This document shows positions 1 to 62,240 of a stretch of 64,000 nucleotides of DNA, one piece after another; the stretch's first letter is position 1, and every line of letters starts with the position of its first letter. The DNA is from an uncultured Gammaproteobacteria bacterium. GTDB taxonomy: Bacteria; Patescibacteriota; Patescibacteriia; SBBC01; CAIJZX01. The notes under the pieces are model-generated. The model saw nothing but the letters and a program-made list of their open reading frames with translations. It had not been told where the DNA came from and made no database searches. Position numbers and translations under genes: made by a program. The stretch lies in contig CAYLHT010000001.1 in the NCBI GenBank assembly GCA_964383765.1, positions 36,998 to 100,997 on the forward strand, read 5' to 3'.

Positions 1-1600
<1,600 letters not shown>

Positions 1601-5012: not shown

Positions 5013-5649
5013 GAACTTTCTTCATCTTTTTTCGCCATTCCGCAATGCCTTTATGATGCCCGCTCAACAATTCTTTCGGCACGCGTTTACCCTTAAACAC
5101 TTCTGGTCGAGTGTATTGTGGATATTCTAACACTCCCGGCTGGCTATGCGACTCATCAACTGACGATTCGTCTTTGCCCAACACACCGGGCAACAATCGT
5201 GTCACCGCATCCATCACGACCATAGCCGGTAATTCGCCGCCGGTCAGGACGTAGTTGCCGATGGAAATTTCTTCATCGACATAATCCACGACACGCTCGT
5301 CCACGCCCTCATACCGGGGACAAATAATGACAATCTGCTTGTATTTCGATAGTCGTTTTGCATCGGCCTGGGAAAATGTTTTTCCTTTGGCCGACATCAA
5401 CAAAATGCGTCGTCTTCCTTTCTTTGGTAGGGCTTTGAGGGCTTTGAAAATCGGTTCAACTTTCATCACCATGCCTACCCCACCGCCATACGGTCGGTCG
5501 TCGACACTACGATGTTTGTCAGATGTGAAATCGCGGAGATCGTGGAAGTGAAACGACACCAGTTTCTTTTTTTGAGCGCGTTTAATGATGCTCTCGTTCA
5601 GGTAAGCATCAAACATTTTTGGGAAAATGGTCAGTAGGTCGAAACGCAT
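4999..5649 (-). CDS. trmD: tRNA (guanine37-N1)-methyltransferase TrmD
   Basis: [16 protein letters not shown]...[13 protein letters not shown] aligns with the E. coli TrmD N-terminus and SPOUT knot. The start is set at the Met of MRFDLL (cat at 5647-5649) rather than the longer ORF start at 5697. Confidence 0.9.
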
Positions 5650-11117: not shown

Positions 11118-12122
11118 GTGGAGGAAGTCATGCCGAAAAAGATTGCGGTCTGGCGGCACGATCGGAAGGACTTCGAGTATTTGACACGTGATTCGATTGA
11201 GGCTCGACGCCCCCCGATTGGCCGCGAAGATTATGGGGAACGTTGTTTCACCGGCTCGGTCGCCATCCAGCAGCCAGCCGGTCAGCGAGCAATCTTTCGG
11301 TGGTCGGACCATCTCGACCGGTTCGAACAGAGCGTCGCGGCCGACGCTATGGTCAAACGGCTTCCCTGTTCGCGGGAACTCCTGACCAACGTCGTCAGCG
11401 ATCTGGTCTGGATGAATGATCAACCCTACATCCGTTGCAGCATTGGAAGCGTCGGAGGGGTCCGGGTTTATGCACACGATCCCCAACCTGACTTCCATGT
11501 CTGTACCGAGGACATCGATCCGATCACTCGCACGTACCTTGGCCCGGACGTGTCCACCAAAGGTCTCCGGGTGTTGGTGACCGACTGGCGACGCGGGTTT
11601 CCCGATGCCGTTACCATGGCCAAGTCAGCCAGCAATTACCAGCGCAGCATCAATGCTAAGGATGAGGCCGTCCAGGCCGGGATGGATGATGGCGCCCTCG
11701 TCGATTCAACCGGCGACTACCTATCCGAAGCGTCGGTCGCGAACCTGATCCTGATCAAGGGTCAACGAGCTTTCCGACCGGATCGGCGGTGTGGAGCGCT
11801 GGACAGCATCACCCGTCGGACGGCTGAGCGACTGCTCAAAGACACCGAGCAGATTGAGACCGACCCAGCCCTAATCGGGCCGAGGCTCCTCGAGGAGGCG
11901 GATGAAATCATGGCCTGCGGCACGGCTATCGGTTGCATCCGGATTCGGGAGCTAGCCTGGCCTGCTAAGGGCGTTCACTGGATGCTCCGTCGTGACGAAG
12001 CAGATCAAGTGGCTCTCCGGATCGATCGGAAATACCTGGCCTTGATTCAGGGTCAAGTTCTGGGCTACGACAACTGGTTCACACCGATCGAGAGCATGCA
12101 CGCTCAGACGGTCAGGACCTGA
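11118..12122 (+). CDS. class IV aminotransferase (branched-chain amino-acid / D-amino-acid aminotransferase fold)
   Basis: SASNYQRSINAKDEAVQAG...EASVANLILIKG...GALDSITRRT matches the fold-type IV PLP enzyme pattern (E..s.N.f, G..GITR). The probable true start is ATG 11130 after GGAGGAA. The region is markedly GC-rich. Confidence 0.7.
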   Translation: MEEVMPKKIAVWRHDRKDFEYLTRDSIEARRPPIGREDYGERCFTGSVAIQQPAGQRAIFRWSDHLDRFEQSVAADAMVKRLPCSRELLTNVVSDLVWMNDQPYIRCSIGSVGGVRVYAHDPQPDFHVCTEDIDPITRTYLGPDVSTKGLRVLVTDWRRGFPDAVTMAKSASNYQRSINAKDEAVQAGMDDGALVDSTGDYLSEASVANLILIKGQRAFRPDRRCGALDSITRRTAERLLKDTEQIETDPALIGPRLLEEADEIMACGTAIGCIRIRELAWPAKGVHWMLRRDEADQVALRIDRKYLALIQGQVLGYDNWFTPIESMHAQTVRT

Positions 12123-12209: not shown

Positions 12210-13196
12210 ATGCGAAAATTGTTCGTCGGATTTTTGGCCATCCTTGGGCTAAGCGCCCTGGTTTTTGCTGTGCCGGCCAAGGCCGCGACCAAGGTCCCTC
12301 GCAAGATTGACGGAGTGATGGTTGACCCAAAAAACGCTAATCCGTGGGTGACGGCGGTCATGATTGATAACCATCCGGCCGCCCGGCCACAATCAGGGAT
12401 GAGTAAAGCCTCAGTCATTTATGAGTCTTTAGCCGAAGGCGGCATCCCGCGGTTCATGGCGCTCTTCGTTGATTATTCAGTCAAAGTCTTCGGTCCGGTT
12501 CGATCGACTCGACCGTATTTTGTGCGTTACGCCGCGGAATACCCGGCGGCGATCGTCCACGCCGGCGGCAGTCCGGATGCCTTAGCGCTCATCCGCTCCC
12601 TTAAGCTCGGGAGCATCGAAGGGATTAAAGGAAAATTTGCGAAACTCTTCTACCGCGGCCCGGGCGGTGGTGTGCACGCCCTCTTCACGACCGGCCCAAA
12701 AGTTTGGACGGCCCTGAAAGCGCTGCGCTACGATCGGGCGACGCCGAAGTACCCAAGCTGGACCTTCGTGGATGAACCGGCGATAGCCGGCCGGGCAACC
12801 GGTAAACATGGTGCCATCATTGACCTGGGCGCAGGCAAACAGTACCAAATTCGGTTTGACTACGACCGCAAAACCAATACCTATAAACGCTTAACCGGTG
12901 GCCGACCCCAGATCGATAAGCTGACTAAACAACAACTGGCGCCAAAAAACGTAATTATCATTGTTGTTCCGAAGGAAAAAATCCTGGATCGCAAAGGCCG
13001 GCTTGATTTGCACACCGTCGGCCAAGATAAAGGCGTGCTCTTGAAAAACGGAAAATCAGTACCGATTGTTTGGAAAAAACCGGGCACGCGAACCCGCACC
13101 CAGTTTTTCACGACCGACGGAAAAGCAGCTGAACTGAATCGCGGTCAAACCTGGATTGTGGTCGTGCCGCGAACCCACAAGTATAATTTGTTCTAA
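12210..13196 (+). CDS. secreted DUF3048 (YerB-like) domain protein
   Basis: Signal peptide MRKLFVGFLAILGLSALVFAVPAKA; ESLAEGGIPRFMALF and HAGGSPDA blocks resemble the DUF3048 N/C domains. Confidence 0.55.
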   Translation: MRKLFVGFLAILGLSALVFAVPAKAATKVPRKIDGVMVDPKNANPWVTAVMIDNHPAARPQSGMSKASVIYESLAEGGIPRFMALFVDYSVKVFGPVRSTRPYFVRYAAEYPAAIVHAGGSPDALALIRSLKLGSIEGIKGKFAKLFYRGPGGGVHALFTTGPKVWTALKALRYDRATPKYPSWTFVDEPAIAGRATGKHGAIIDLGAGKQYQIRFDYDRKTNTYKRLTGGRPQIDKLTKQQLAPKNVIIIVVPKEKILDRKGRLDLHTVGQDKGVLLKNGKSVPIVWKKPGTRTRTQFFTTDGKAAELNRGQTWIVVVPRTHKYNLF

Positions 13197-50752: not shown

Positions 50753-51706
50753 ATGGCGTCGTTCTACCGACGGGAGGTACTCCAGCAAGCTTGGGCCATT
50801 ATTTGGCGGAAGAAGTATTTGTGGTTCATCGCCTTTTTCGGCGGCCTGGCTTCCTACGGGGGCGAAGTCAATTTTCTGTTCCGAAAATTTAATGCGGTCG
50901 CGACCTTCCAGTCGTACCTGGTCGCCATTCGCAAACTATTCGTTGAGGGGAAAGCCCAAACCTATCTCCATCAATTTACGCACGTTTTCCAACAGGCGCC
51001 CGGAGTAATCTTGGGCTATCTTGGCGTTGGCCTCGCGATCCTCGTGATCGGGCTCTGGTTGATGTTCGTGTCCCAAGGCGCGGTTATTCGCATTGTTGGT
51101 CGGTCACAAGAGAAGAAGTCTAGCGATTTTCTTGATGGCGTGGCCACCGGCGCGGAGAAATTTTGGGCAATTGTGCAGCTTAACATCATTGCTGTTCTAC
51201 TGGGATGGGCCGGGTGGATTATTGTGGCCGGCCTACCGGCGACCATTTATTTCCTGTCCGGTCAGGTAGCCTGGGCGGAAATCGCCCGAGTGGGGGCGGT
51301 GGTGTCGGTACTCTTGAGCGCTATTATCACGCTGGTCACCCAATATTCAACGGCAGCGGTGATCTTGCGAGGCCTCAGTCCGGTGCCGGCGTTAGCGGAT
51401 AGTTGGAAACTGTTCCGTCGCAATGTTGCGGTCAGCATCGAAATGGCATTGATCATTTTCCTGATTAATCTCGGGATCTTGGTTGTTTCGTTTGGAATCT
51501 TCGACGCCTTCGGTCTGTTCTTCTCGGCGGCCGGCTTGATTACACTCCTGGTCTTAATCGCGGTTGAGTTCGGTGCACTGAGTGCCTTCAACCTGTCGGC
51601 CTGGACAATTCTCTACCAGAAACTCGTGGCCGGCCGGGTCAACAGTAAAATCGGCGAGTGGACAACGCAGCTGGCGAGTTTCGCCAAGAACAAACAAACC
51701 ACCTAA
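50753..51706 (+). CDS. hypothetical polytopic membrane protein
   Basis: 317 aa with 6 or more TM helices. Confidence 0.45.
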   Translation: MASFYRREVLQQAWAIIWRKKYLWFIAFFGGLASYGGEVNFLFRKFNAVATFQSYLVAIRKLFVEGKAQTYLHQFTHVFQQAPGVILGYLGVGLAILVIGLWLMFVSQGAVIRIVGRSQEKKSSDFLDGVATGAEKFWAIVQLNIIAVLLGWAGWIIVAGLPATIYFLSGQVAWAEIARVGAVVSVLLSAIITLVTQYSTAAVILRGLSPVPALADSWKLFRRNVAVSIEMALIIFLINLGILVVSFGIFDAFGLFFSAAGLITLLVLIAVEFGALSAFNLSAWTILYQKLVAGRVNSKIGEWTTQLASFAKNKQTT

Positions 51707-51759
51707 CTTGAATTTGCCGAGTCGGAGTGGTAGAGTTCGGGCGGATTTACTGTAGCTGC

Positions 51760-51939
51760 GGGCAGGTAGCTCAGCTGGTTAGAGCAGTCGTCTTACCCGC
51801 CTGCCTAGCCGGCCTCTAGCTCAATGGCAGAGCGTCCGTCTTATACACGGATGGTTCCAGGTTCGAATCCTGGGAGGCCGACTAGGACGGCGGGCAGGTA
51901 CACGACCGGTCGATGGTTCGAATCCATCCCTGCCCACCA
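51760..51939 (+). tRNA. tRNA-Val(UAC)-like gene split by a 103-nt insert after anticodon nt 36 (exons 51760-51796 and 51900-51939)
   Basis: The 5' exon is GGGCAGG-TA-GCTCAGCTGGTTAGAGC-A-GTCGT-CTTAC. The 3' exon is AC-ACGAC-CGGTC-GATGG-TTCGAAT-CCATC-CCTGCCC-A-CCA. The acceptor stem has 7/7 bp, the anticodon stem 5/5 bp, and the reconstituted loop is CTTACAC. Confidence 0.5.
51810..51881 (+). tRNA. tRNA with anticodon UAU (tRNA-Ile2-like), embedded in the insert of the split tRNA-Val
   Basis: CGGCCTC-TA-GCTC-AATGGCA-GAGC-G-TCCGT-CTTATAC-ACGGA-TGGTT-CCAGG-TTCGAAT-CCTGG-GAGGCCG-A forms a perfect cloverleaf; no CCA is encoded. Confidence 0.7.
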
Positions 51940-52643
51940 TGAATATTCTGATCACCGGGGGTAGTAGTGGCATTGGGCAAGCGATTGCCCAAGCATGTGC
52001 TCAGGGCGGGCATGATATATTTTTGGTGGCGCAGGAGGTCGGGAAGCTTGAACGAGTTGCCAATGAATTGACCGCGGCGACGGGTCGGAAGGTCTTATCA
52101 ATGACTGCCGACGTGTCTGATCCGAAGCAAGTCGAGGCCATTCAGCAACGATGTCGGAAAGAAAAGTTTTCACCCGACGTGCTCGTGCTCAACGCCGGAA
52201 TTTGGCTGAGCGGCGGAATCATGGGCGTCAAACCTGAGGAATTCGATCAAATTATGCACGTCAACGTGGCGTCAATGTTTTATTTTATCAAAGCTTTCCG
52301 CGAAACACTCAAACGCAGTGTCTATCCACGCATCATCATCACCGGCTCAACCGCGGGACTCGAGGGCCATCACCGGAGTGGTGGTTCACTCTACAGCGTT
52401 AGCAAATGGGCGGTGCATGGTTTGACAGTCAATCTGCGCCAAGAATTAATGTCCGATAACATCGGCGTGACCCATATCGCTCCTGGGAGCGTGATGAGCG
52501 CGATGTGGGACGCTGATGAAGCTGAGCCGAAAAGAATGCTCGAAGCAGCTGATATTGGGAAAGTTGTCTCAGCACTACTGGAGTTGAGCCCGCAAGCCGT
52601 TGTCGAAGAAATCGTGATTCGGCCGATGGGTGGGAATATTTAA
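51939..52643 (+). CDS. SDR-family short-chain dehydrogenase/reductase
   Basis: TGGSSGIG cofactor motif, catalytic YSVSK (YxxxK). The ATG overlaps the last A of the upstream tRNA CCA. Confidence 0.85.
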   Translation: MNILITGGSSGIGQAIAQACAQGGHDIFLVAQEVGKLERVANELTAATGRKVLSMTADVSDPKQVEAIQQRCRKEKFSPDVLVLNAGIWLSGGIMGVKPEEFDQIMHVNVASMFYFIKAFRETLKRSVYPRIIITGSTAGLEGHHRSGGSLYSVSKWAVHGLTVNLRQELMSDNIGVTHIAPGSVMSAMWDADEAEPKRMLEAADIGKVVSALLELSPQAVVEEIVIRPMGGNI

Positions 52644-52652
52644 TCAACAGCT

Positions 52653-53282
52653 GTGACTACTCAAGTCACTCAATCCAAACTCTCCGTCCGCAAAGCCTTT
52701 CAGCGAATGTGGGTGGCGGGTACGCTGGGCGCGTTTTTCACGGCGATTGTTCGAACGATCCCGATCGACATTCAACGCTTACAGTCCGGGCCGGACGCCG
52801 GCTTGATTCTGGACCGGGCGCTGCGGTATGGGTATCTCCTGTGGTTGCTCAGCTACTTTTTCATCACCAATCTTCGTCTTGAACAAGGTGAACATCCATC
52901 CCGACGCGACTTGGTCTTTGATGTGATTCAGTCTGTGGCTGGGCTGAGTGCCGCATACGCCCTGGGATTCGTGTCGGAAACTCGAGGGTTCGGTCCCCAT
53001 GAATCCGCCGGAGCTATCATAAGTGCCAACCTCACCATTCTTAGTATTGCTCTCATTGCATTCTACCTGTTTCGATCAGAAGCTGACCGACGGATTCATC
53101 AGCTCCGATTTGTTGGCGCAATCCTAGCAGCTGCGTCCATCCTAACGGCCAGCGTGGTGACATCAACAATCTGGATGTTGACGAGCTCAGCCTTATTTCT
53201 CCTCGCGCTCTGGGTGACTCTGTGGCGATACATCCGATTGCGCCTGCGCCCAGAGTCACCAAGTCGAACCTCTACTCTTTGA
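52653..53282 (+). CDS. hypothetical membrane protein
   Basis: 209 aa with 5-6 TM helices. Confidence 0.4.
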   Translation: MTTQVTQSKLSVRKAFQRMWVAGTLGAFFTAIVRTIPIDIQRLQSGPDAGLILDRALRYGYLLWLLSYFFITNLRLEQGEHPSRRDLVFDVIQSVAGLSAAYALGFVSETRGFGPHESAGAIISANLTILSIALIAFYLFRSEADRRIHQLRFVGAILAAASILTASVVTSTIWMLTSSALFLLALWVTLWRYIRLRLRPESPSRTSTL

Positions 53283-53648
53283 GGGTTCCATCGCGGGCCA
53301 GAGATTGGATCGCGCCTGAGCGTGCTTGTGGTACACTTGGCTAGCCACCGTTCCGGCCTTTGACCGGGAAGGAGGTGATCCTCAGTGACGGCCGGAATTG
53401 CGGCTCGAAACTTGAATGGATCAACCTTTGAACGGAAAGGTGGTGGCCATGGACTTTACATGGCTGGCCTCGTTGCTCGGACTGTTCCGAGAGATCGGAA
53501 CGTTCGCCGCAGTCGAAGCCGATCCGGACGGACCCTGCGGTCCGAGCCGGCATTTCCCCGGCTAGTGGACGAAGGTCCAACTGCCGGTTCATCGCCTTGC
53601 GATTCAGTGGGTTCCCCCCTCCTGGATCTCGAGGGATCTATTGACCAG

Positions 53649-53676
53649 GCGCACGCAGGACGCGTGCGCCGTTTTT
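53649..53676 (+). terminator. strong rho-independent terminator closing an ORF-free GC-rich region
   Basis: GGCGCACGC-agga-GCGTGCGCC followed by GTTTTT. Confidence 0.65.
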
Positions 53677-53792
53677 CTAAAAAGTTTTTCTGGTGGGCGG
53701 TAGAGGATTCGCCCCTGCGGGGCCGGGGTCGCCACCGGCGACCCGTTGCTCGACGACTCGCAACCCTCTGACCTTTCTTTTTACCTCTCCGC

Positions 53793-53870
53793 TGGTGCGC
53801 GCATCTGGATTTGAACCAGAGACCTTCACAATGTCAATGTGACGCTCTAACCGGGCTGAGCTATGCGCGC
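53793..53870 (-). tRNA. tRNA-Val(GAC)
   Basis: Minus strand GCGCGCA-TA-GCTCAGCCCGGTTAGAGC-G-TCACA-TTGACAT-TGTGA-AGGTC-TCTGG-TTCAAAT-CCAGA-TGCGCGC-A-CCA. Confidence 0.9.
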
Positions 53871-53902
53871 ACAAGCAGAGAAATAAATATGTAAAGTTCT
53901 TC

Positions 53903-53971
53903 CTTCACAATGCCTGCCCTGAGCCTGCCGAAGGGTCAATGTGACGCTCTAACCAACTGAGCTAACCGCCC
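53903..53971 (-). pseudogene. tRNA-Val(GAC) 5' portion (acceptor to anticodon stem) with a 23-nt insert after nt 36 and no adjacent T-arm
   Basis: Minus strand GGGCGGT-TA-GCTCAGTTGGTTAGAGC-G-TCACA-TTGAC-[CCTTCGGCAGGCTCAGGGCAGGC]-AT-TGTGA-AGG, followed by non-tRNA sequence and then the complete tRNA-Val(GAC). A possible matching 3' remnant ...GGGGCGAATCCTCT-ACCGCCC-A-CCA lies at 53691-53725. Confidence 0.45.
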
Positions 53972-54062
53972 ATGAAAGCACAAGAGAAAATATCATATCT
54001 CCTCCATATCATCAAGCATACCAAAACACCCCGCCAGGCGGGGTGTTGTGTTTGAAAGCGAT

Positions 54063-61320: not shown

Positions 61321-61397
61321 GGACGATTAGCTCAGTTGGTTAGAGCGTCTCGTTTACACCGAGAAGGTCGTAGGTTCGAATCCTACATCGTCCACCA
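61321..61397 (+). tRNA. tRNA-Val(UAC)
   Basis: GGACGAT-TA-GCTCAGTTGGTTAGAGC-G-TCTCG-TTTACAC-CGAGA-AGGTC-GTAGG-TTCGAAT-CCTAC-ATCGTCC-A-CCA. Confidence 0.9.
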
Positions 61398-61736: not shown

Positions 61737-61744
61737 CTAAAAAA

Positions 61745-62240
61745 ACACCCGGTCTCGGAGTCGTGTCGAGGATTATCCATCCAGGATGCACGACCCGAGG
61801 CCGGGGTTGGTGGAGCGACGCGCGAATGCCCGGAGAGCCGGGTAGGCTGTTATCCGTGCAAGCGCCAGTGGCGCTGCAATACGGGAGCCTTGAGCCTCGG
61901 CGATGGGCGCCGCCGCGAATGCGGCGGTCTAGTGCGCGGTATCAACTTGCGCGTGAGCGAGCCCAACGACATCGTCGTTGTGTTCCCTATTCGAGGGAAC
62001 CTATCGGTGTTTTGGGTGAATCTCAATTCACCGACTGGCTCTTGCGGCCTCACGCCGCGGCGGTACTCTTCTTCATGGCGACCTCCATGGTTGGCCAGAA
62101 AGCGGGCGCACTCCCAGGGTTGGGACTGCCCCGACAGTGAAGACTTTTTCAAGATGCCCGAGCAGTATACACCCTTTTCGGATTTTGTCAAGACGGGCTT
62201 GAAAATAATGCCCAAGTCAGCTATCCTTGCCAGGCAATTT
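61745..62240 (+). other. GC-rich, hairpin-dense, ORF-poor block between tRNA-Ala and tRNA-Phe; unassigned structured RNA candidate
   Basis: Contains the hairpins CCCGGTCTCGG...CCGAGGCCGGG (with inner GTCGTG/CACGAC), GCGCC-agt-GGCGC and CCGCCGC-gaat-GCGGCGG, plus the 12-mer CCGGGTAGGCTG and CTTGAGCC seen in bacterial RNase P RNA. The only ORFs here are low-complexity or span the tRNA. Confidence 0.25.

Follow-up and report, generated by a model that had tools for sequence, protein, structure and literature searches.

A complete tRNA-Ile(UAU) gene nested in an interrupted tRNA-Ile(UAU) gene of a Kerfeldbacteria-like patescibacterium

The 64,000-nt stretch of contig CAYLHT010000001.1 analysed here (hereafter the window, positions being counted from its first letter) contains a tRNA gene that is interrupted in its anticodon loop by another, complete tRNA gene. 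At 51760-51939 of the plus strand (locus 1) two tRNA halves enclose a 103-nt insert, in which a complete 72-nt tRNA with anticodon UAU lies between pairing arms. These parts had been recognised in the initial annotation, which was made from the sequence alone, and its description of a tRNA-targeted insertion of another complete tRNA, displayed on a helix formed by its flanks, stands. This nested architecture is real and far beyond chance. We regard the inner tRNA as the working gene and the outer halves as the recent relic of a disrupted resident gene, a reading to which we give a probability of roughly 0.7.

The 5' half of the outer gene (GGGCAGGTAGCTCAGCTGGTTAGAGCAGTCGTCTTA, 51760-51795, +) comprises nt 1-35, i.e., the 5' strand of the acceptor stem, the D arm, the 5' strand of the anticodon stem and C32-A35. 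It is followed by the 5' arm of the inserted cassette with a C spacer (CCCGCCTGCCTAG plus C, 51796-51809, +), the inner tRNA-Ile(UAU) (51810-51881, +) and the 3' arm with a conserved CAGG tail (CTAGGACGGCGGG plus CAGG, 51882-51898, +), after which the sequence reads as nt 36-76 of the outer gene with its CCA (TACACGACCGGTCGATGGTTCGAATCCATCCCTGCCCACCA, 51899-51939, +), to be joined to 51760-51795. The 5' arm pairs with 51882-51894 at 11 of 13 positions; the pairing of the arms had been seen before, but seven nucleotides of the insert (C 51809 and GCAGGT 51894-51899) had been skipped. The inner tRNA is of the C1-G72 type, its CCA is not encoded, and it is detected by ARAGORN and by Rfam (RF00005, 70.3 bits against a gathering threshold of 29 bits; E = 2.6e-13 in the whole window and 9.7e-15 in a 2.4-kb sub-region). 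On raw DNA both programs detect the inner tRNA alone, and ARAGORN run with intron options over 51700-52000, a check suggested at the outset, likewise reports nothing else; tRNA finders overlook such outer relics. The minimum free energy fold of the 180 nt reaches -88.3 kcal/mol (z-score -4.8), and none of 200 shuffled sequences folds as well. In its outer part the acceptor stem, the T arm and most of the anticodon stem form, in its inner part the acceptor stem, the anticodon arm and the T arm, and the helix of the cassette arms is also present, while both the inner and the outer D arm are non-canonical.

The outer gene had been taken for a tRNA-Val(UAC) with the insertion at 36/37, and joining the halves after C 51796 and before A 51900 (51760-51796 plus 51900-51939) does produce a 77-nt cloverleaf that ARAGORN calls tRNA-Val(UAC). 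In the alternative junction A35 is followed by the insert CCCGCC...GGGCAGG and then by U36, which restores the loop CTTATAC with anticodon UAU. Joined in this way (A35 at 51795, U36 at 51899), the outer gene is identical at 76 of 77 positions to the uninterrupted tRNA-Ile(UAU) of the relative L008 (2096-2172), the sole difference being one D-loop base, and at 71 of 77 to that of L001, as against 60 of 77 for the window's own tRNA-Val(UAC) at 61321-61397 (+; ARAGORN and Rfam). Neither the valine identity nor the 36/37 position therefore holds. The insert begins with the base earlier read as C36, and the base earlier assigned to its end is the true U36; the insert sits at 35/36, and outer and inner gene consequently share their anticodon. 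Judged by sequence and synteny, the outer gene is the tRNA-Ile(UAU) ortholog. The tRNA-Val(UAC) at 61321-61397 is indeed an independent, uninterrupted gene, but not a paralog of the outer one, and the related suggestion of a dying paralog or disrupted pseudogene came near the conclusion reached here except that the gene is an Ile(UAU) ortholog. As this case illustrates, a wrong choice of junction can lead the reader to assign the wrong isotype.

Relatives, referred to here by the handles of their contigs, were retrieved by means of two flanking proteins, the gene order being FtsH, a membrane protein, the tRNA and then, where present, a short-chain dehydrogenase (SDR) gene, which in the window lies at 51939-52643 (+) and served as syntenic anchor. 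The host is a bacterium according to the 16S ribosomal RNA (rRNA) in the window, and homologs of the neighbouring membrane protein indicate Kerfeldbacteria-like Patescibacteria. The contig of L008 (CAZFGG010000023.1) is titled 'uncultured Gammaproteobacteria', whereas its genes and tRNAs match this Patescibacteria clade, and the label is probably a binning error. The tRNA-Ile(UAU) at the syntenic spot is uninterrupted in L001, L008, L056 and L062, which makes the interrupted state the derived one. The closest relative found, L055 (82% identity in the membrane protein), has a contig that ends at 2351, exactly at A35 of a tRNA-Ile 5' half, as would be expected if the assembly graph branched there into an interrupted and an uninterrupted allele or met a nested repeat.

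The search of related genomes for such splits, which had also been proposed initially, was productive. In L059 and L061 a homologous cassette occupies the same A35/U36 site in a different type of tRNA-Ile(UAU) gene; its termini, (T)CCCGC...GCGGG(A)CAGG, are conserved, and its arms have diverged in sequence yet still pair. The inner tRNAs of L059 and L061 retain all their stems through four compensatory pair changes, and a comparison of seven intact genes for tRNA-Ile(UAU) from the clade shows no broken pair among the 21 cloverleaf pairs that they share and compensatory changes in 11 of these. In L009, at the locus that corresponds to that of the window, the 3' end of an inner tRNA precedes the 3' part of an outer tRNA-Ile. 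The Ile locus of L060 consists of a 5' half, a complete gene and two orphan 3' halves, each beginning exactly at U36, and its Val(GAC) locus is nested at three levels. Nesting in relatives also hits Val, Ala and Asp genes, as in the nested tRNA-Val(GAC) of L062, tRNA-Ala of L059 and tRNA-Asp of L037, and for Lys, Leu and Phe relics lie beside an intact gene; in L059, dead, insert-riddled copies stand beside tRNA-Lys and tRNA-Val(UAC). The CCCGC...GCGGG(N)CAGG termini recur in the window (two copies), L059, L060, L062 and L037, the 5' terminus CCCGC being common to cassettes and hairpins of these four relatives and the GCGGG(N)CAGG end likewise. Members of this hairpin family that have no cargo (28-45 nt) are also found in the D loops and anticodon loops of dead tRNA fragments (e.g., CCGCCTACGCCATTGCTTCGGCGGGCAGG in L062), and the window cassette looks, by its sequence, like such an empty hairpin with a tRNA in its loop. 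No Rfam family was found for any insert, either at the gathering threshold or at E <= 10, and BLAST of the insert against phage genomes returned generic tRNA similarity alone (~75-83%). The idea that the inner gene is 'immune' through a different anticodon stem, which holds in the window, L059 and L061, was dropped, as inner stem and target are identical in L060.

The recurrence noted initially at 53.7-54.0 kb of the window was confirmed and proved more elaborate. On the minus strand at 53691-53971 (locus 2), an outer tRNA-Val(GAC), uninterrupted in L008 (2341-2399), holds three inserts, and its exons are identical to the L008 gene over the 59 comparable nt. Nucleotides 1-35 (53936-53971, -) are followed after A35 by an empty hairpin-type insert of 23 nt (CCCTTCGGCAGGCTCAGGGCAGG, 53913-53935, -; boundary ambiguous by one C), which begins with CCC and ends with GGGCAGG (CCCTTCGG...GGGCAGG) as does the locus 1 cassette. 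The next exon piece (CATTGTGAAGG, 53902-53912, -) runs from nt 36 to the variable loop, in which lies a 130-nt cassette (53772-53901, -) whose arms, TTTATTTCTCTGC (53887-53875) and GCGGAGAGGTAAA (53792-53780), form 13 of 13 pairs, three G-U pairs included. Its cargo is an intact tRNA-Val(GAC) (53793-53870, -; ARAGORN; Rfam 70.0 bits for 53796-53870). The remaining exon pieces (TCAGAGG, 53771-53765, and CCTCTACCGCCCACCA, 53706-53691, -) enclose a structured element of 58 nt (GTTGCGAG...GGGGCGAAT, 53707-53764, -) that replaces the outer T loop and has homologs in relatives. The inner tRNA-Val(GAC) is identical at all 78 positions to the inner tRNA-Val of L062, where it is inserted elsewhere in the outer gene; window and L062 are only 53% identical in the neighbouring membrane protein, and their other shared tRNAs are 78-97% identical. 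With the same site used in different targets and different sites used by the same cargo, nesting has arisen repeatedly.

In several relatives the outer genes are clearly dead. The outer 3' half of L059 carries about nine substitutions and a 2-nt deletion, with a T loop CTCGGGT and an acceptor mismatch; the middle tRNA-Val of L060 lacks CATTG, part of the anticodon stem; and the 3' part of the outer tRNA-Val of L062 is mostly deleted. Decay or deletion of outer halves beside cassettes implies that in L059, L060 and L062 the outer gene is dispensable and not spliced. Moreover, contigs that contain a whole locus hold exactly one intact copy with the anticodon of the surrounding fragments. This count covers both loci of the window, Ile, Ala, Lys and Val in L059, Ile, Val and Leu in L060, Val, Lys and Phe in L062 and Asp in L037; L009 and L061 are excluded as cut by contig ends. 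The decay of outer genes, the intact same-anticodon copies and the absence of an intron motif described below fit a relic and its replacement, not an intron.

In the mechanism that we propose, a resident single-copy tRNA-Ile(UAU) gene would have been struck, at the level of DNA, precisely between A35 and U36 by an incoming 103-nt non-coding hairpin-type cassette (CCCGC...GCGGG-CAGG) bearing in its loop a complete, sequence-divergent tRNA-Ile(UAU). The composite would be transcribed from the promoter of the old gene, presumably the promoter-like motif ahead of the outer gene (TTGAAT 51708-51713, a 17-nt spacer, TAGAGT 51731-51736, +). This motif was found upstream of the outer gene only and falls below the threshold of a generic promoter scan, which left it unflagged; the arrangement TTGAAW-17 nt-TAsAsT is found ahead of the first tRNA at this locus in L008, L055, L056, L059, L061 and L037. 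RNase P and 3'-end processing enzymes would then free the inner tRNA, now the AUA decoder of the cell, leaving the two outer halves as by-products and the outer gene non-functional in this genome. In genomes with single-copy tRNAs, such an insertion would survive only if the cassette brought a replacement with the same anticodon, and repeated rounds could produce the Russian-doll loci of the relatives.

Several observations weigh against this proposal. The outer exons of the window are undecayed (one D-loop difference in 77 nt for Ile, none in 59 comparable nt for Val), which means either that both events are very recent or that the exons are still under selection; we read it as recency. Neither a transposase nor an integrase nor a homing endonuclease was found among the ~50 open reading frames (ORFs) of the window scanned with Pfam, which do encode RNase III and TrmD. 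The target site is not duplicated, since CTTA-insert-TAC is a simple insertion into CTTATAC. Finally, several tRNAs of the clade that stand free likewise lie between complementary leader and trailer arms, so that the arms may be an RNA-processing feature rather than the termini of an element. Such complementarity, of 9-19 bp and immediately at the gene ends, is seen at L059 12395-12468 and 11012-11097, L001 9002-9076, L007 5338-5414 and L009 1105-1181, and could represent either a clade-wide processing stem or the footprint of a cassette insertion.

One alternative is that the 103-nt insert is a true intron, cut from the outer pre-tRNA with ligation of the halves by an endonuclease/ligase system of these bacteria, which would yield two tRNA-Ile(UAU) species or, with a 36/37 junction, a tRNA-Val(UAC) with an Ile-type body. 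Pristine outer exons in the window, an arm helix that brings the exon ends together in a fold that largely keeps both cloverleaves (the D arms being non-canonical), and the sense orientation and loop position of all elements would suit an intron, as would the self-splicing group I introns reported at exactly 35/36 in other Patescibacteria tRNAs (PMC13011429). Nevertheless, a strict search for bulge-helix-bulge motifs (3-nt bulges, 4-bp helix) found none at 51795/51796 or 51898/51899, and the motif counts do not exceed those of shuffled sequences (6 against 8.6 expected at locus 1, 19 against 21 at locus 2). No group I or group II intron model matches 51700-54060 in Rfam, even at E <= 10; the insert is too small for a group I core, which usually takes 200 nt or more, with 72 of its 103 nt being tRNA, and the 5' exon ends in A35 rather than U, the last insert base being G. 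The ORFs scanned in the 64-kb window include neither EndA nor RtcB and, with a bacterial 16S rRNA and junctions devoid of a bulge-helix-bulge, the archaeal-type processing that had been envisaged finds no basis. RNase P and RNase Z leave 3'-OH and 5'-phosphate ends, and such products are not RtcB substrates. Given in addition that homologous cassettes lie within clearly dead outer genes, and that every locus seen whole has an intact same-anticodon copy that splicing would make needless, an intron is unlikely. A further alternative, which grants the outer gene the role of neither tRNA gene nor mere relic, holds that its halves and the arms are kept as an RNA-level processing or expression scaffold, for example as an RNase III/RNase P entry site for the inner tRNA or as tRNA-like punctuation that makes a leaderless SDR mRNA. 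The last A of the outer CCA is in fact the A of the SDR ATG (51937-51941); 3' processing of the tRNA would therefore leave a leaderless SDR mRNA, and no single transcript can supply both an intact CCA and an intact AUG. This overlap, the RNase III encoded in the window, the 10-19-bp leader/trailer arms of many tRNAs of the clade, nested or not, and the excess of G-U over A-C mismatches in the arms (9:3) speak for a scaffold, but the excess is not significant (p = 0.07), the same tRNAs do without outer halves in L001, L008, L056 and L062, and the outer halves decay freely in L059, L060 and L062, which leaves this explanation improbable.

tRNA genes are classic integration targets. The fragments might accordingly be scars of integrase-mediated integration and excision at tRNA genes (att duplications) with no dedicated cassette, and a full tRNA is followed by a 3' partial duplicate in some relatives (L009, and Val in L059), while a large serine recombinase adjoins the tRNA cluster of L062; an archaeal model of this kind exists (PMC3293823). 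Yet locus 1 has no partial tRNA duplicate, its inner gene is complete, of a different sequence type and with its own co-varying acceptor stem, the insert measures merely 103 nt with no integrase among the neighbouring ORFs, and in different tRNAs the loop positions repeatedly show the same conserved termini, so that we hold such scars to be very improbable. Even less credit can be given to an assembly artefact, i.e., two tRNA genes joined into a chimera during metagenome assembly of the contig: the organism is uncultured and the L055 contig breaks exactly at A35, but the junctions are not at k-mers common to both tRNAs, two loci within one window show the architecture, and so do the independent assemblies L009, L037, L059, L060, L061 and L062 (NCBI, ENA, JGI, Logan).

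If the relic-and-replacement reading is adopted, the agent of insertion has to be considered, and it is by inference that we regard the cassette as mobile at the DNA level. As in miniature inverted-repeat transposable elements and insertion sequences, terminal inverted repeats are present (11/13 at locus 1; 13/13 with G-U pairs at locus 2); target-site duplication is absent. Neither a Y1 (HUH) transposase nor a repetitive extragenic palindrome (REP)-associated tyrosine transposase occurs among the window ORFs scanned. An IS608-type insertion 3' of TTAC, which the earlier junction would have allowed, was rejected on the ancestral sequence CTTATAC and also on the variable 5' flanks of other copies (TTA, TGA, GTA, AAT, GTT). 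In L059, the tRNA-Ala 5' end GGGCCCTTAG is present twice, and the interval between the copies, an insertion in a tRNA-Ala gene, contains an ORF for an 80-aa GIY-YIG nuclease (11701-11943, +; PF01541, E = 1.4e-16), whose position hints at a candidate homing nuclease for tRNA overwriting; the large serine recombinase beside the tRNA cluster of L062 offers a second hint. A nuclease or recombinase acting in trans could drive the spread of cassettes, or they could be selected for because they offer an escape from toxins that target tRNAs. A direct repeat of 11 nt, GCGGGCAGGTA, is present at 51758-51768 and 51890-51900, where the cassette end plus U36-A37 equals the outer tRNA start plus two upstream bases; together with CCTGCCC it could build an acceptor/T-arm minihelix out of the 3' half alone. 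The GGGCAGG acceptor strand is older than the insertion, being present in L008, and GCGGG(N)CAGG is the usual terminus of the family; the repeat may be a coincidence or a microhomology used in recombination.

Other elements accompany the tRNA relics. The element in the T loop of locus 2 belongs to a family of ~55-70 nt with the conserved structure GTTGCGAG..CGAGCAAC GGGTC..GACCC CGGCCCC..GGGGCGAAT, always in sense orientation and in T loops of tRNA relics of different isotypes, with copies at L008 2226-2285, L009 ~45-110, L059 ~5143-5196, ~5255-5292 and ~12636-12700, and L037 ~446-511 (-). Its hairpins are conserved with some covariation, and no Rfam family matches it. Scans of viral contigs gave no hits for this element or for the inner tRNA, and a metagenome scan for the element gave 44 hits, of which that in L037 alone is real, the others being chance matches in GC-rich DNA. 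An analogy with integron attC sites (GTTRRRY) was rejected, as the sequences do not fit. A perfect or near-perfect 20-bp palindrome, CCTGCCTRCCGGYAGGCAGG, lies beside tRNA relics in L059 (5293-5312, 12204-12223, 12556-12575, 12701-12720) and L037 (421-440), and, like a REP element, often separates the T stem from the acceptor strand. Between tRNA-Ala and tRNA-Phe the window has a 500-nt GC-rich, hairpin-rich spacer (61740-62240) that has neither an Rfam hit nor a convincing ORF; the matching interval of relatives carries tRNA relics and inserts. The bacterial 16S rRNA gene (1-1600, -) runs off the window start, its ~1600 nt spanning model positions 1-1488, and may hold an insertion, as reported for candidate-phyla bacteria; none of the hairpin termini was found in it.

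Comparison with known systems places these loci among the insertions into tRNA genes that make good the damage they do, with a substantial chance that they represent a new class of tRNA-cargo element. Like REP/REPIN and IS200/IS605-type elements, which occur in many copies, the cassettes are small non-coding hairpins that stand in a fixed orientation, do not duplicate their target and have at the foot a conserved tetranucleotide, in this case CAGG, and the palindrome CCTGCCTRCCGGYAGGCAGG similarly recurs in L059 and L037, but no Y1 transposase was seen in the window, no target tetranucleotide is conserved, and REPs are not characterised by cargo genes in their hairpin loops. With tRNA-restoring integrative elements they share the tRNA gene as target and the compensation of their own damage; those elements, however, comprise kilobases and bring a 3' segment and an integrase, whereas here a complete, independent tRNA is carried on a ~100-nt element and the target stays broken. 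Archaeal disrupted tRNA genes include bulge-helix-bulge introns, split and tri-split tRNAs and the transposable introns of Thermoproteales (PMC3293823; PMC10714607), and a mobile-element model of tRNA disruption has been put forward for Caldiarchaeum (PMC3293823). As in these genes, the interruptions described here lie in loops, non-canonical positions included, with several per gene, and complementary GC-rich sequences unite the halves; as in the mobile-element model, a tRNA fragment is left beside a working copy. Unlike in archaea, the host is bacterial, no bulge-helix-bulge was found and no splicing endonuclease is known, the insert is a whole same-anticodon tRNA gene, and the outer copies are not spliced but decay. 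In Patescibacteria, tRNA-Asn and tRNA-Asp have group I introns at 35/36, and standard tRNA finders miss these genes (PMC13011429). These introns have in common with our inserts the phylum, the site, their being missed by finders and a terminal G, but differ from them, as ours are of at most 103 nt, lack a group I core (Rfam), follow a 5' exon ending in A rather than U and contain a tRNA, and nothing found here supports self-splicing. The free-standing GIY-YIG endonuclease SegB promotes homing in the tRNA gene cluster of phage T4 (PMC2330249). There too a tRNA region is overwritten by a variant allele in a selfish process at the DNA level, and a GIY-YIG gene occurs in the tRNA-Ala insertion of L059; unlike in SegB homing, no endonuclease gene lies in or near the window cassettes, and the old allele is interrupted and kept as halves rather than converted. 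A search of the full-text literature found no complete tRNA gene nested in a same-anticodon tRNA gene described for bacteria.

In all, it is possible, although we propose it only tentatively and at less than even odds, that Kerfeldbacteria-like Patescibacteria carry a previously undescribed mobile element, a non-autonomous hairpin cassette of ~100-130 nt with a complete tRNA gene as its sole cargo, which would insert in a loop (typically at A35/N36) of a tRNA gene with the same anticodon, kill and replace this gene in one step, use its promoter, spread between lineages and overwrite its targets serially. A bolder variant has some outer genes still rescued by a bacterial tRNA splicing activity. 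Intact, freshly interrupted, decayed and triply nested intermediates are visible side by side in related genomes. If this proposal is true, the tRNA genes of minimal genomes with single-copy tRNAs are not static but are repeatedly overwritten by tiny same-anticodon cassettes, which would mean that an essential gene is exploited by a selfish or adaptive element in a novel way and would provide a bacterial counterpart to the unsolved origin of archaeal split and multi-intron tRNAs.

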